A stretch of 46,229 bases of DNA from NCBI GenBank assembly GCA_015296065.1, contig DVDU01000250.1, positions 1 to 46,229 on the forward strand. Reading direction: 5' to 3'. Below, piece by piece: positions 10,176-35,382 of this stretch. Positions within the stretch are counted from its first letter, which is position 1. Every line of letters begins with the position of its first letter. The position numbers and the translations under genes were made by a program. A model generated the notes under the pieces. The model was not told where the DNA came from. It saw only the letters and a program-made list of their open reading frames with translations, and did not search any database. The DNA comes from Oscillatoriaceae cyanobacterium M33_DOE_052 (lineage in GTDB: Bacteria; Cyanobacteriota; Cyanobacteriia; Cyanobacteriales; Laspinemataceae).

Positions 10176-10227
10176 ATTGATAATTGATAATTAACAATTG
10201 ATAATTATCAATTATCAATTATCAATT
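10176..10227. repeat. Palindromic heptamer array, (AATTGAT)n switching to (AATTATC)n, of the STRR-like TTGATAA family
   Basis: ttgataattgataattaacaattgataattatcaattatcaattatcaa lies 35 nt upstream of the maf start. Confidence 0.8.
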
Positions 10228-10262
10228 TGCCTGCCTAACCAATAACAAATCACAAAGAAGAT

Positions 10263-15229: not shown

Positions 15230-15487
15230 TCACCATTGCTCTGGGTCGATGTTGCGAAAGCAGGCGGTATTGGCCTCAAATTCTTCTGCTTCCTGTTGGC
15301 TCCAGACCCCGGCTAATTCGCTCAGGTCTTCATGTCGTGGGTAGAGGGGTTTTTCCTGGGTGAGACCCACACTGCGATCGAGCAGACGCAGGACTAAAGC
15401 ATTGACGCTGATGTTTTCTTTTTTTGCCAGTGCTTTCAGCTTAGAGAGGGTTTCGGGTTCCAGTCCTCGAACACTGATATTTGCCAT
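15230..15487 (-). CDS. Ribbon-helix-helix (Arc/MetJ/FitA-like) antitoxin-type protein, 85 aa
   Basis: MANISVRGLEPETLSKLKALAKKENISVNALVLRLLDRS matches the RHH antitoxin N-terminal fold pattern (beta strand, helix, helix). It is followed by the PIN remnant. Confidence 0.6.
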   Translation of the reverse strand: MANISVRGLEPETLSKLKALAKKENISVNALVLRLLDRSVGLTQEKPLYPRHEDLSELAGVWSQQEAEEFEANTACFRNIDPEQW

Positions 15488-15925: not shown

Positions 15926-16984
15926 TTAAGGATAAAATCCCAGTTTGGGCAATCCCAAAGTTTCATCCCAGCCCATCATAATGTTGAGACATTGGACGGC
16001 TTGACCGGCTTGGCCTTTGATGAGGTTATCAATCGCTGACATGACAATTGCCCGATCGGTTCTGGGGTCCACTTCCACACTGATAAAGCAAGCATTACTA
16101 CCCGCAGCCCATTTGGTTTGGGGATAAACTCCCGCAGGTAATACCCGCACCCAGGGAGAATTGCGATAAAAGGCATTGTAAATCGTTACCAAATCTTCCC
16201 GCACCAGTCCGGGGTCTCGCAAAGTGGCATACACTGTAGCCAAAATGCCTCTCACCATTGGCATCAGGTGGGGGGTAAACTGGACCATCACCTCATGTCC
16301 GGCTAAGTCGCTACAAATTTGCTCGATTTCTGGGGTATGTCGGTGGCGAGCCACGCCATAGGGGGAAACAGAGCTATCAGCTTCGGCTAATAGCATATTG
16401 ATTTTGGCTTGGCGTCCGCCCCCAGATGTACCAGATTTGGCGTCAATAATCGCGGTTTCTGGCAAAATCATCCCTTGTTTGAGCAATGGCGCTAGAGCCA
16501 GAAGGCTGGCGGTGGGGTAGCATCCGGGGCAACCCACGAGCTGGGCGTCTTGGATGCGATCGCGATACAGTTCTGGTAAGCCATAAACCGCAGTCGCCGC
16601 GATCGCCTGGTCCTGGCGTTCCATCCCATACCAAGATTGGTATGTGTCCAGAGAACTAAACCGATAGTCCGCCGACAGGTCCAGAACCTTGCAGCCTTTC
16701 TCCAACAGCGTGGGAGCCATCTGGCAAGCCAAACCGTTCGGGAGAGACAAAAACACCACTTGACAGCGAGCCGCGATTTTCTCTGCATCTACCGGCTCCA
16801 CAATCAAATTTGTCACATGGCCCAAATGGGGGTAGATATCGGAAAAAGGCTTCCCAGCACTGCTATCCCCTCCCAAATAAACCACCTCTACCCCCGGATG
16901 ATCCATCAACAGTCTGACTAGCTGCACCCCACCATAGCCAGACGCTCCCACGATACCCACTGCTACTTTCCCTACTTCTCCCAT
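15926..16984 (-). CDS. argC: N-acetyl-gamma-glutamyl-phosphate reductase
   Basis: [11 protein letters not shown], the Rossmann-fold N-terminus, the catalytic Cys region GCPGCYPTA and the length are diagnostic. The start was set at MGEVGK because the ORF extension is not conserved-looking. Confidence 0.9.
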
Positions 16985-17275
16985 ATCCTTTCTCCTTGAC
17001 AGATCCTTTCCTTTATATATGTAGTCACCTTTCGCCGGAATGGGCTGGATTTGACGCACAAAATTAAGATTTCAGCCTGTATCCCCCCGCCCAGAGCGGT
17101 CCCTCTGTGGCAGGTGGTCACCCATATAAGTTTTATCCCGATCGCTCCAGGCTTAATGAGTTTTTTTCTCAAGATGTCCGCTTTTGCTCTCAATCCGCCT
17201 CACCCCAACCCTAAAGCTACATCATGGCTGAGCTGTGGCGGAGATTTTGGTTTCAATCATACTGATAGTGGGTAG

Positions 17276-17530
17276 ATGGCAACCTGGTCTAACTACTATT
17301 TTGTAATAGTGGCAACTAATCCTCACTTAAAACAATTTGGCACTCGGGTGCGGAGTCTAAGAAAAGAGCGGGGGCTTTCCCAAGAACAGCTAGGGGAATT
17401 ATCCCAACTCCACCGGAATTACATCGGTGGCATTGAGCGTGGGGAAAGAAACCTCTCCTTTTTAAACATTCTCCGCTTGGCCAAGGGTTTGGGTATCTCA
17501 CCCAGCGAGTTATTAGAAAATATCTCCTAA
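17276..17530 (+). CDS. XRE-family (Cro/CI-type) helix-turn-helix transcriptional regulator, C-protein-like
   Basis: RVRSLRKERGLSQEQLGELSQLHRNYIGGIERGERNLSFLNILRLAKGLGISPSELL is a canonical XRE HTH. The true start may lie downstream of the annotated Met. Confidence 0.7.
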   Translation: MATWSNYYFVIVATNPHLKQFGTRVRSLRKERGLSQEQLGELSQLHRNYIGGIERGERNLSFLNILRLAKGLGISPSELLENIS

Positions 17531-17821
17531 ATATAGGTGACAATAAGTCAAGGTCAAAAATATTGTATTATATGGGATAATTTTAGGATATTCAAAATAG
17601 ACGACCATGAGCAAGTCCAGCCCCGACACGCCGAGATCTAGCCTTTATGGCGGGTCACTTTGGCGCGGCCAAAATACTGCTCTTAGCTAAATTCTGGGAT
17701 TATCCCTGATAATTATCAACAGGAATCGCGAAATGACTTCACCTTATGACCGACTGCTACCTTAAGATTGGGCCGCGAAAACCAGGGAATTAATTTACCA
17801 TTGACCCCGCCAGAAATTTGA

Positions 17822-18670
17822 CTAAAATAGAGACAGTTGGGCATCCCGCAACTGCTGTTGGGTCAGAAAATTATCGATGCGGTTAGCAGCGATATCGCAA
17901 TAATCCTGCCGAATTTCCAAGCCGATTACCTGTCGCTGGAGCGCTAAAGCTACTACAGCAGTAGTCCCAGAACCCAGAAAAGGGTCAAAAATGATGTCCT
18001 CGCAGTTGGAAGTAGCCTTCAGGATGCGTTCTATGACAGCGGCGGGAAATTGCGCGGGATGGGGGGTGCGTTCTGGTGATGACCGATTTTTACCCGATGT
18101 CACCTTGGGAAATTCCCATACATCCGTAGGATTTTTACCGAGGGAGTTAACTTTTATCTTGCCATTCTTTTTTTGGTGAGGATATTTTACATTTGGGTCG
18201 CGCACGTCATCCAAGTTGAACGTGTAATTATCGGGATTTTTCACATACCACAAAAATTTTTCATTTCGCGGGGAAAAGAAATGGCGCCCCGCAACTCCTG
18301 CACCGTAGTGCCAAATAATTTCCTGAATCAGATAAAAAGGAATTTTATCCCAAAGCAGGTAGGGGATGGGGATGGCTTTGGCTCGATGTGGAATGGAAAG
18401 ATAGCCTAAATTTAGCCAAAACGCACCATCAGCAACGGTAATGCGATAAATTTGCTCTATCCATTGGACACACCAATTTAAATAATCCTCTAAAGGGAGG
18501 GGTTTTTCATATTCTTTGCCAATATTATAGGGGGGACTGGTGACGGTCAGATTGATAGATTTATCTGGGATATGTGCTAATACCTCTAAACAATCCAAAT
18601 GATAAATCCAGCAATTAGGCGCTTGAAAGTAGGGATAACCCAAAGCGTTCACGATATCTGTAGCCAACAT
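17822..18670 (-). CDS. Beta-class DNA methyltransferase, N4-cytosine or N6-adenine. Motif IV (SPPY) precedes motif I (FxGxG).
   Basis: TSPPY lies near the N-terminus and DPFLGSGTT near the C-terminus. This order defines the beta-group amino-methyltransferases. The length is 282 aa. Confidence 0.85.
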   Translation of the reverse strand: MLATDIVNALGYPYFQAPNCWIYHLDCLEVLAHIPDKSINLTVTSPPYNIGKEYEKPLPLEDYLNWCVQWIEQIYRITVADGAFWLNLGYLSIPHRAKAIPIPYLLWDKIPFYLIQEIIWHYGAGVAGRHFFSPRNEKFLWYVKNPDNYTFNLDDVRDPNVKYPHQKKNGKIKVNSLGKNPTDVWEFPKVTSGKNRSSPERTPHPAQFPAAVIERILKATSNCEDIIFDPFLGSGTTAVVALALQRQVIGLEIRQDYCDIAANRIDNFLTQQQLRDAQLSLF

Positions 18671-18900
18671 AATTTACACCCTTATCATGGTTATAATCAT
18701 TAGCATAACAGTTTTATTAAATTTGCTTGCCTGAATCCAGCGGGAAAGCCAGTCTATCTGGCACATGACCTCACCCCAAACTCGCCCTCACCTCTCCCAC
18801 AAAGGGAGGGGTGAGTAGAGGGGAGAGGGGCTTTTGACTTGTCGCTCATCATGTGACAAAGTGCTGTAAGTATTTTTCCAGGGCGGGATATGGCCGAAAA

Positions 18901-18953
18901 GTGAAGAGTGAAGAGTAAATAGAGACAGTTTTCACTCTTCACTCTTCACTCTT
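18901..18953 (-). terminator. Long hairpin built from an inverted STRR heptamer array, (GTGAAGA)2...(TCTTCAC)3. Probable terminator of the TPR gene.
   Basis: gtgaagagtgaagagtaaatagagacagttttcactcttcactcttcac. On the minus strand it is followed by TTTTCGGCC, and it lies 35 nt after the TPR gene stop. Confidence 0.5.
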
Positions 18954-18985
18954 TAGTCCCCCCATCACCCCATCTCTACGCCAGA

Positions 18986-20209
18986 CTAAGCCAAGATTAA
19001 CTCGACAAATGCCTCATCGCTGCGGATCTCGGTAAAAGTCGCGTCGAGTTTAGCTTTTTCCTTGTTAGTGGGGTCAATGTTGATCGCCTGACGGAGGTTG
19101 TCCACCACCAAATCCACATCACCTTTGAAGGCGTAACAACAGGCTTTTTCATACCAAGACTCACAGCGAGAAGAGTTGAGCTGGATAGCTTTGTTGTAAG
19201 AAGCGATCGCCTCATCGTGGCGCTGCATTTTCGTGAGCGCCTTACCCCGCTCTAACCAAGCATCATAGAAATCGGGATTAATCGAGATGCTCCTATCATA
19301 GACTTCCACAGCTTCTTGATACTTGCCCTCGGAAACTAGCTCTTTCGCCTGATTGATATAGACTCCTAAGACATCTTGAAAGGGCTTTTGAATGCTATCT
19401 TGAAACTTGGCGGATTCTTCTAGGGCACTGCGCGCCTCAGAGATTAAGTTTTGAGTAGCTAAAGCCATTGAAATTAGTTCATTTAACTGGGCATTTTGCT
19501 CAGCTTTTTGCTGTGATGAGAGTACGGGTAGCCCAGTATTGCCAGTATTGTCTAATGGTTGTGCTGGGGGAGAATGGGGGACGATCGCCGAGGTCATTTG
19601 AGAGTTTAACTCACCACCGAGCTGTTTTTTCACCTCAGTGCCCACTTGCTCCGCCACACTGCGGCGCATCAGCCAAATGCCCACCCAAGTCCCGGTCACC
19701 AGAAATAGAGTCAACCCCAGTACCCAGTTAATGAGGTTGGTGGTTTTGCTGAAGAGGCGATCGACTTCGGCTTGAACGATTTTTTGGATCCGCTCTTCTT
19801 CGGCGCCAGTTGGCATCACTTCATCCGCCGCCGAGGCAGGTTGGCTCATGGGAGCTGTGGGGGCAGGAGTATTGGTCGGTTCAGGTGTTGGGGTTGGCGA
19901 AACTACAGCCGCACTTGATGGGGAGGCGGTGGGTGTGGGTGCAGGCATCGCGGTGGGGTTTGAAAGTACGCCCCGAACTGGCGTGGTCGTAGCTCGTGGT
20001 GTGGTCGTGGCTTCTGGGGTGGTTTGTACCTTGGGTTTAGGTGGTGGCGGCGGCGTGGGAGTGGTCACAGCTTGAGAGATCGCCCCCTCCATCGTGGGGG
20101 AAAAATCGGGTCCGAAGGCAGCGATCGCGGCGCCGGGAGCGGACCCAAGAACGATCGCCAAGCTAACTTCCCACAACAGCGCCTTGGCCAGAGTCAACTT
20201 GGTTGTCAT
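18986..20209 (-). CDS. TPR-repeat protein with a signal peptide, a Pro/Thr-rich low-complexity region and a transmembrane segment
   Basis: The C-terminal 130 aa show 3 to 4 TPR units (YQEAVEVYDRSISINPDFYDAWLERGKAL...AIASYNKAIQLNS...). A hydrophobic segment LGLTLFLVTGTWVGIWLM is present. Confidence 0.7.
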   Translation of the reverse strand: MTTKLTLAKALLWEVSLAIVLGSAPGAAIAAFGPDFSPTMEGAISQAVTTPTPPPPPKPKVQTTPEATTTPRATTTPVRGVLSNPTAMPAPTPTASPSSAAVVSPTPTPEPTNTPAPTAPMSQPASAADEVMPTGAEEERIQKIVQAEVDRLFSKTTNLINWVLGLTLFLVTGTWVGIWLMRRSVAEQVGTEVKKQLGGELNSQMTSAIVPHSPPAQPLDNTGNTGLPVLSSQQKAEQNAQLNELISMALATQNLISEARSALEESAKFQDSIQKPFQDVLGVYINQAKELVSEGKYQEAVEVYDRSISINPDFYDAWLERGKALTKMQRHDEAIASYNKAIQLNSSRCESWYEKACCYAFKGDVDLVVDNLRQAINIDPTNKEKAKLDATFTEIRSDEAFVELILA

Positions 20210-25570: not shown

Positions 25571-25632
25571 ATTGATAATTGATAATTGATAATTGATAAT
25601 TGATAATTGATAATTGATAATTGATAATTATC
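25571..25632. repeat. (TTGATAA)n array of about 8 units, 13 nt upstream of the start of the 24689-25558 gene
   Basis: ttgataattgataattgataattgataattgataattgataattgataattat. Confidence 0.8.
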
Positions 25633-33756: not shown

Positions 33757-33794
33757 TGATTACCTCGCCGTAGTTCGGGGACGGGGATGGGGAG

Positions 33795-33867
33795 ATAATT
33801 AACAATTAACAATTAACAATTGATAATTATCAATTATCAATTATCAATTATCAATTATCAATTATCA
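33795..33867. repeat. Palindromic TTGATAA-family heptamer array 39 nt upstream of the dnaA start codon
   Basis: ataattaacaattaacaattaacaattgataattatcaattatcaattatcaattatcaattatcag. Confidence 0.8.
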
Positions 33868-34041
33868 GGGAATGGCGGGATGAAGCAGAAAATTCCCCTC
33901 ATCTATAATGATAGATAAGCCGAGGAAACGACAGACCGCAGCTAAGACCGTCCGCGCATCTCTAACCACTGCCGTTCCCGATCCGCTGTGGGCTGAAGCT
34001 TTTCCCGGCGCTGTTGATTTTGCTTTTGCATTGGGACTTTT

Positions 34042-35295: not shown

Positions 35296-35304
35296 TTTCT
35301 GGGG

Positions 35305-35356
35305 ATAATTGATAATTATCAATTATCAATTATCAATTATCAATTATCAATTATCC
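35305..35356. repeat. Palindromic TTGATAA-family heptamer array between htrA and def
   Basis: gataattgataattatcaattatcaattatcaattatcaattatcaattatcc. Confidence 0.8.
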
Positions 35357-35382
35357 CCACCCTCCCCACACCCTCAAACACC

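Follow-up and report, generated by a model that had tools for sequence, protein, structure and literature searches.

The 46,229-nt contig DVDU01000250.1 (assembly GCA_015296065.1) of Oscillatoriaceae cyanobacterium M33_DOE_052, which we refer to in its full length as the window, carries a small gene for an XRE-type helix-turn-helix (HTH) protein and, convergent with it across a 291-bp gap (17531-17821), the gene of a beta-class DNA methyltransferase (M). We consider it highly probable, at roughly 0.9, that this locus is the remnant of a type II restriction-modification system of the ScaI family, in which a controller gene (C) preceded an endonuclease gene (R) in the same direction and M converged on both, and that R was lost by a 544-bp deletion that left C and M intact. 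The flanking genes are argC upstream of the HTH gene and, beyond M, a gene for a tetratricopeptide repeat (TPR) protein and rpsN.

An earlier reading of the same DNA, the original prediction, had described an XRE gene resembling those of C proteins, convergent with a beta-class methyltransferase and with no restriction enzyme. Both open reading frames (ORFs) are found where it had placed them, and the endonuclease is present only as a stub. It had offered two interpretations. That of a restriction-modification system deprived of its endonuclease is upheld by an intact C-R-M arrangement at the orthologous site of the closest relatives and by the deletion in the window. That of an orphan methyltransferase under C-protein control finds no support, the sole C-box of the window lying upstream of C and none upstream of M. 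The features of the locus are collected in Table 1.

Table 1. Coordinates of the features discussed, on the forward strand of the window
Feature	Position	Strand	Basis
C-box operator of the C gene	17256-17285	+	conserved block, position weight matrix, published layout
Conserved 21-mer ATCATACTGATAGTGGGTAGA, identical in L034 and Phormidium sp. ETS-05 (L037)	17256-17276	+	
Left operator (OL) half-sites, TACT-GAT-AGTG	17260-17270	+	reading of the C-box
Central spacer, GGTA	17271-17274	+	reading of the C-box
Degenerate right operator (OR), GATG-GCA-ACCT	17275-17285	+	reading of the C-box
Proposed -35, GGTAGA	17271-17276	+	reading of the alignment
Putative -10 hexamer, TACTAT	17294-17299	+	17 nt past the -35, 9 nt ahead of GTG 17309
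C gene ORF, XRE-type HTH	17276-17530, likelier 17309-17530	+	ORF list
C-R spacer, 202 bp, lineage-specific	17531-17732	+	alignments to the intact relative
R pseudogene, 5' stub: codons 1-21, MTSPYDRLLP*DWAAKTRELI, in-frame TAA at codon 11	17733-17795	+	tblastn, DNA alignment
R pseudogene, 3' stub: last 8 codons and stop, LPLTPPEI*	17796-17821	+	DNA alignment
M gene, 282 aa, intact	17822-18670	-	ORF list
Hairpin CTCACCTCTCCC-acaaa-GGGAGGGGTGAG	18787-18815	.	fold z -3.0 (+ strand), -2.0 (- strand)
Long hairpin, inverted GTGAAGA heptamer arrays	18897-18953	.	fold z about -7, both strands

An endonuclease stub in the gap

The gap had been described as free of ORFs. This holds for intact ORFs, but an 89-bp stub of a ScaI-family endonuclease, in two pieces, lies inside it. 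The protein-level search of the gap for endonuclease remnants that the original prediction had recommended is what brings the stub to light: with the R protein of the intact relative L034 as query, a tblastn search of the whole window recovers it at E=2.3e-5 and finds no other R-like coding sequence in the 46 kb. In the DNA alignment the window is collinear with the L034 locus through C, a spacer of ~200 bp and the first 63 nt of R, and it resumes at the last 26 nt of R; the 544 alignment columns of intact L034 R between ...GGAATTAATT and TACCATT... are absent, with the deletion junction between 17795 and 17796. The 3' piece, identical to L034 at 24 of its 26 nt, abuts the stop codon of M tail to tail. 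The window thereby keeps 29 of about 210 endonuclease codons. Seven of the 21 N-terminal codons have changed, one of them to a stop, compared with differences from L034 at ~8% of the residues of M, and the changes in the stub fit a period of neutral drift in the R remnant.

Membership of the ScaI family would call for an intact PF09569 protein beside M, which is found at the orthologous locus of the nearest relatives and not in the window. Judged by its sequence, the window locus is a degenerate derivative of a ScaI-family system and not a working member of that family.

Relatives of the locus and states of decay

Homologues of M number in the thousands. The closest, 73-92% identical, occur in filamentous cyanobacteria, and relatives at 57-68% identity are also found in Chloroflexota, Planctomycetota, Acidobacteriota, Gemmatimonadota and Armatimonadota, a patchiness that is characteristic of mobile restriction-modification modules rather than of an orphan conserved in one lineage. 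We compared 33 species-representative genomic loci. An HTH homologue converges on M in 23 of them, from at least five phyla, and the interval between the two genes in these relatives is ~600 bp, against 291 bp in the window. This interval is filled by an ORF of ~200 aa that starts 0-7 bp past the HTH stop and matches PF09569 RE_ScaI over its full length (E 1e-73 to 1e-49). Beside M, R is intact in 18 of the 33 loci and disrupted or partial in nine, through nonsense mutation, frameshift, splitting by an insertion or partial deletion; the other six hold no trace of it. These counts differ from what an orphan methyltransferase would give, kept without its cognate endonuclease across a lineage. 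About half of the cyanobacterial copies are decayed. The same organisation, an HTH gene followed by a ScaI-family endonuclease gene and a convergent methyltransferase gene, is annotated as such by RefSeq on a 4.5-kb ColE1-type plasmid of Escherichia coli, NZ_CP104531.1.

The nearest relatives, with an M 92% identical to that of the window, are GCA_054682715.1 and two Logan contigs, in which the gene order is enolase - vapBC - argC - C - R - M - TPR - rpsN and R is intact at 210 aa. Two sister records, L041 and Phormidium sp. ETS-05 (L037), carry a different and larger R deletion, which begins in the C-R spacer and reaches the final codons of M. In L041 this is the sole deletion; ETS-05 also lacks M residues of roughly 8-170, SPPY included. 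Four states are found at one site: the intact C-R-M cassette, two alleles that lost R in independent deletions, and one that lost M as well as R. C is retained in all four, and the C gene and its operator are intact in all three decayed alleles. Measured against L034, synonymous divergence (dS) of the cassette (0.16-0.33) spans the same range as dS of the housekeeping genes on either side (0.16-0.33), an agreement that favours vertical descent of the cassette at this site.

A further form of damage was seen in a planctomycetotal relative (L020:7276-8240), in which R is split into two halves, residues 3-136 and residues 124-244. An inserted segment of ~1 kb, with a 294-aa ORF and possibly an insertion sequence, separates them.

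The methyltransferase

M matches PF01555 (N6_N4_Mtase) at E=1.3e-57 over residues 39-262. It has SPPY (motif IV) near its N-terminus and FDPFLGSGTT (motif I) near its C-terminus, the order of the beta class, and SPPY is shared by 119 of its 120 best homologues. Its solved relatives are M.RsrI, M.MboIIA, CcrM and M.PvuII. The earlier assignment as probably an N4-cytosine enzyme gains indirect backing from the SPPY form of motif IV and from the ScaI-family partner R in relatives, M.ScaI being catalogued as a cytosine-N4 methyltransferase (PMC8557920). We predict that M makes N4-methylcytosine (m4C). NCBIfam offered no endonuclease model, and its adenine-methyltransferase models, CcrM and PRK11524 among them, matched M only below threshold and were given no weight towards an N6-adenine specificity.

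Relative to L034, the ratio of nonsynonymous to synonymous divergence (dN/dS) is 0.157 for M (dS 0.33) and 0.135 for argC. Polarising the amino-acid differences in M with 118 outgroup sequences placed 12 changes on the window branch and 12 on the branch with intact R; because the split is even, relaxed constraint is not indicated. The low ratio shows M to be under purifying selection, and the enzyme is probably still active, as a de facto orphan m4C enzyme.

Family membership is the sole ground on which AGTACT is predicted as the target of M. In the window this hexamer is absent, with 6.0 copies expected, and cyanobacterial hosts that have an intact system contain 3 copies where 18.9 would be expected. 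Many other palindromes show equal depletion, and the shortage agrees with an AGTACT target without singling it out. A literature search for AGTACT methylation in cyanobacteria gave nothing relevant. We also asked whether M might be the widely conserved, solitary GGCC m4C enzyme of cyanobacteria. We rejected that identification on account of its relatives, which carry a ScaI-family R and occur patchily across Chloroflexota, Planctomycetota, Acidobacteriota and other phyla.

The controller protein and its start

The HTH protein matches PF01381 (E=3.9e-16), and its top matches among solved structures are C.AhdI (1.6e-17), C.BclI (6e-13) and C.Esp1396I (2e-08). It is a small, single-domain XRE-type HTH protein, of the class of about 70-100 aa, that resembles characterised C proteins, and 110 of its 120 best homologues have the recognition-helix motif HRNY. 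In relatives C lies directly upstream of R in the same orientation, and in the window the R stub (17733-17821) lies downstream of it. The resemblance to controller proteins claimed in the original prediction is supported by these similarities together with the C-box upstream of the gene, and by its sequence and setting we take the HTH protein to be a genuine restriction-modification controller. Its dN/dS relative to L034 is 0.37, a value drawn from few substitutions.

The protein had also been described as 84 aa long, which is probably not its true length. A length of 73 aa is found in 82 of the 120 best C homologues, and the C gene of the cyanobacterial relatives encodes 73 aa from a GTG that aligns with GTG 17309 of the window. 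Because the annotated ATG at 17276 falls within the C-box/-35 region, the 84-aa model probably overextends the gene by 11 codons, and the protein is probably one of 73 aa that starts at GTG 17309. This GTG is not a mutated ATG, since the relatives share GTG at the same position.

The C-box and the predicted C promoter

The block ATCACACT(T/C)ATAGTGTGTAGA is conserved ~32 nt upstream of the GTG in cyanobacterial relatives. Scanned with a position weight matrix derived from 18 boxes, the 46-kb window yields a single C-box, at 28.4 bits, with the next best site at 7.9 bits. The PvuII-type layout is GACT-N3-AGTC-TGTA-GACT-N3-AGTC (PMC2175313). In that design the promoter activated by C has its -35 within reach of the central spacer, which overlaps it, and the mRNA of C has no leader (PMC2175313; PMC2275141). 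The box of the window fits the published consensus, is conserved in relatives and is unique, with the caveat that its spacer is GGTA and not TGTA and that its proximal operator is weak. A textbook double C-box occurs in the non-cyanobacterial members and on the E. coli plasmid, for example ACTCATAGTCTGTAGACCCAAAGTC, and the sequences of these operators indicate that the ScaI family uses a C-box circuit of the PvuII type.

An NNNTAT hexamer ends 9-10 nt ahead of the GTG in L001, L004, L007, L030, L034 and the window. C mRNAs that lack a leader are known from PvuII (PMC2175313) and AhdI (PMC2275141), and the arrangement in the window predicts a nearly leaderless C transcript from a C-dependent promoter, with its start at about 17306-17308.

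The C-R spacer

The spacer between C and R, 202 bp in the window and 211 bp in the intact relative L034 (7486-7696), measures 0-7 bp in most other family members. The spacers of the window and L034 are 69% identical. Folding in three lineages gave no conserved structure, only a hairpin with a T-run in ETS-05 that is weakly kept in the window. An Rfam scan of 16900-19100 found no RNA family in the gap, returning sub-threshold microRNA-like matches caused by the heptamer hairpin described below, and a scan for consensus terminators found none on the + strand between C and M.

TATAAT-like hexamers occur in the spacer (GGTATAAT in L034 and GGGATAAT in the window). By analogy with what has been described for Csp231I, the spacer may give R a promoter that is independent of C.

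Is M controlled by C?

Upstream of M we found no C-box in the window or its closest relatives: the best matrix score in 18600-19000 is 2.2 bits, compared with 28.4 for the real box. C control of M in the window is not supported by this sequence; as in AhdI, M seems to form a convergent unit that does not depend on C. A scan for consensus promoters gave no convincing sigma-70 consensus for M.

A subset of the family differs in this respect. A single C-box-like ACTATAAGTA/TACTTATAGT lies just upstream of the M start in eight members (L005:2079, L012:5978, L013, L017:5966, L019:1946, L021:5981, L023 and L032), where it overlaps the presumed -10 and the start of the M gene. C represses M in Esp1396I (PMC2275141), and the position of these sites suggests a similar repression of M by C in that subset, together with a leaderless M mRNA.

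Between M and the TPR gene, the sequence at 18671-18985 of the window (set against L034:5733-6000) is largely non-homologous to its counterpart in L034, L035 and L037, and this applies to the two hairpins described below as well as to the stretch that abuts the M start codon; the promoter region of M has therefore been remodelled in one of the lineages.

Proposed history and alternative explanations

We propose that the cassette was inherited vertically in this Oscillatoriaceae lineage, at a fixed site between argC and the TPR gene, and that R would have been destroyed by the 544-bp internal deletion and a nonsense mutation in the leftover 5' stub. C, with its own C-box and promoter, would now regulate itself alone, and its transcript would cross the 291-bp gap and continue, in antisense orientation, into M from its 3' end. 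Because no C-box lies upstream of M, M is expected to be expressed from a C-independent promoter of its own, and would still methylate the target of the former system, predicted to be AGTACT, to N4-methylcytosine. Under this proposal M is a de facto orphan produced by restriction-modification decay and not a purpose-built regulatory unit.

Several considerations weigh against this proposal, or against parts of it. Our search for an endonuclease spans 46 kb of the genome, and an unlinked enzyme may be encoded elsewhere. The low dN/dS of M could partly reflect selection that predates the loss of R, and the activity of M and C is a prediction from their sequences. Taken as a whole, the sequence of M comes closest to that of the N6-adenine enzyme M.RsrI, the m4C call resting on SPPY and the association with ScaI. 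The depletion of AGTACT is not specific: the window lacks 21 of the 64 six-base palindromes altogether, and AGTACT stands between 6th and 10th in order of depletion. Finally, the C-box of this lineage departs from the consensus in its spacer (GGTA versus TGTA) and in its degenerate OR, and in PvuII changes to TGTA abolished activation (PMC2175313).

If the two genes were instead a functional unit, in which a C-like regulator controls a selected orphan (epigenetic) methyltransferase, the intactness of both and the purifying selection on M would be as expected, and the C-box-like site upstream of M in eight relatives indicates that C control of M exists in the family. We nevertheless regard such a unit as very unlikely: no C-box precedes M in the window or its closest relatives, the R stub marks the gene pair as a leftover, the absence of the predicted target from 46 kb leaves few sites to regulate, and the relatives of M mostly occur with R or R remnants and are not conserved alone. 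A working system served by an endonuclease encoded elsewhere, either unlinked or a different and unrecognised protein, is less likely still. M is indeed intact and conserved, and only 46 kb of genome are visible; however, the cognate R is present in situ as a deleted, stop-containing stub, and the R and M genes of type II systems usually stand side by side, which holds for every intact relative. Nor does an intact endonuclease gene, whose presence the original prediction had named as fatal to it, adjoin the locus: argC lies upstream of the HTH gene, the neighbours argC, TPR and rpsN are housekeeping genes, and the window holds no other ScaI-like coding sequence.

It is barely credible that the HTH protein is an unrelated XRE regulator or antitoxin that neighbours M by chance. 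XRE HTH proteins are ubiquitous, and NCBIfam gives this one weak, sub-threshold matches to HipB-type antitoxins and phage repressors. Its pairing with the methyltransferase nonetheless recurs in 23 of the 33 loci and in at least five phyla, its best solved relatives are all controllers, it has a canonical C-box, and it directly precedes R in intact relatives; this synteny likewise speaks against its belonging to an unrelated operon, the other finding named beforehand as damaging. We give as little credence to the idea that the missing endonuclease is an artefact of assembly, although the window does come from a metagenome-assembled genome. An identical 291-bp gap occurs in another two public records, from an ENA assembly and from the Logan assembly of SRR7539888 (records that may share a sample), and because of this agreement we do not take the deletion for an artefact. 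Moreover, the stub carries point changes, including a stop, that assembly collapse would not create.

C and its operator persist in all three decayed alleles, one of which, that of ETS-05, has neither R nor M in working form. It is unlikely, in our view, that this persistence reflects selection for a stand-alone role, whether in immigration control or through co-option as a host regulator. Were immigration control the reason, the resident C would prematurely switch on the endonuclease of an incoming system that shares its C-box class, and the resident methyltransferase would "vaccinate" the chromosome against ScaI-type systems. The persistence of C is equally explained if the C gene is simply a small target that has so far not been hit.

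Restriction-modification decay of this kind is an ordinary and well-known route, and the locus leaves current understanding unchanged. It does provide a clean, datable-in-principle example of how an orphan methyltransferase originates, and the survey of its relatives adds that some members of the ScaI family carry an Esp1396I-like operator on M. The practical value lies in annotation and in predicting the methylome and the transformation barriers of these cyanobacteria. In the window, the HTH regulator should be annotated as a 73-aa restriction-modification controller, the gap as containing an endonuclease pseudogene and the methyltransferase as the former M of a ScaI-family system.

Hairpins, repeats and a neighbouring toxin-antitoxin remnant

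Two hairpins of the GGAGAGG/CCTCTCC type had been reported to follow the locus. Both are real; only the first is of that type, and neither is part of the system. They lie 5' of M, between M and the TPR gene. Neither occurs in the orthologous spacer of L034, L035 or L037, which is why we exclude them from the system; we take them for repeats or terminators of the host. The second, ~30 nt past the stop of the TPR gene, is probably a terminator or insulator for that gene. Hairpins of inverted 7-nt repeats are found at five intergenic sites of the window (about 10180-10230, 25580-25632, 33790-33870 and 35300-35360, and 18897-18953), with (TTGATAA)n/(TTATCAA)n, (TTAACAA)n and (GTGAAGA)n as repeat units; we take them to resemble the short tandemly repeated heptamer sequences of filamentous cyanobacteria. 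The 12-mer TGATAATTATCA stands at hairpin centres and occurs once more in the C-R spacer, at 17707. A 14-bp direct repeat, AAATAGAGACAGTT, is present at the 3' end of the M ORF (17825-17838) and in the loop of the heptamer hairpin (18917-18930). We rejected it as a cassette boundary: it flanks M alone and is probably a chance occurrence (blastn-short E=0.044).

About 2 kb from the locus lies an intact gene for a VapB/FitA-like ribbon-helix-helix antitoxin (15230-15487, - strand), 96% identical to that of L034. The adjacent PIN-domain (VapC) toxin, 136 aa in L034, survives in the window as two fragments, one N-terminal (from about 15223, MRSIFLDTNA) and one C-terminal of 23 aa (15203-15135, - strand; E=6.5e-8), which indicates an internally deleted vapC and hence a second case near the locus in which the toxin is lost and the antidote kept.

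Comparison with known systems

The ScaI family (PF09569) is the closest match to the locus, the R of relatives being a full-length PF09569 protein (E~1e-73) beside the same beta-class SPPY methyltransferase. The E. coli plasmid NZ_CP104531.1 has the same layout of C and R in tandem with M convergent; its M and C are 61% and 52% identical to those of the window, and its R shares 46% identity with the R of the intact relative. The likeness to ScaI of Streptomyces is at the level of the family, and the AGTACT specificity is, for the window, a prediction. With Dam and CcrM the locus shares a methyltransferase that lacks a working endonuclease partner and sits in a housekeeping neighbourhood. Lineage-conserved solitary methyltransferases include the cyanobacterial GGCC m4C enzyme M.Ssp6803II/DmtB. 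Enzymes of this kind are conserved alone in a lineage, whereas the relatives of the window's M mostly keep R or R remnants and are scattered across phyla.

Among systems with a controller, PvuII shares the order of C before R and the operator architecture, namely two half-sites separated by N3, an xGTA spacer over the -35 and a second operator; its C is autogenously activated and repressed (PMC2175313). It differs in its recognition-helix motif (HRTY, where ours is HRNY) and in its half-sites (GACT/AGTC, against (C/T)ACT/AGTG here), and the C gene here starts with GTG; the window lineage departs further through its GGTA spacer and degenerate proximal operator. The likeness to Csp231I, in which R is described as naturally expressed independently of C (PMC4824078), is positional only: a C-R spacer of ~200 bp with TATAAT-like hexamers, in the window ahead of a dead R. 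Esp1396I has the same convergent CR and M units, C.Esp1396I is a significant solved relative of the controller, and some family members have a C-box at the M promoter as it does; the window and its nearest relatives differ in having no operator there. AhdI resembles the locus in that C.AhdI is the closest solved relative of the HTH protein and its CR unit converges on the methyltransferase unit; its C mRNA is leaderless and its M is not controlled by C (PMC2275141). AhdI differs by its separate S subunit and by an N6-adenine methyltransferase whose promoter contains a target site through which the enzyme regulates its own expression, whereas M of the window is a single beta-class enzyme with no AGTACT site nearby.

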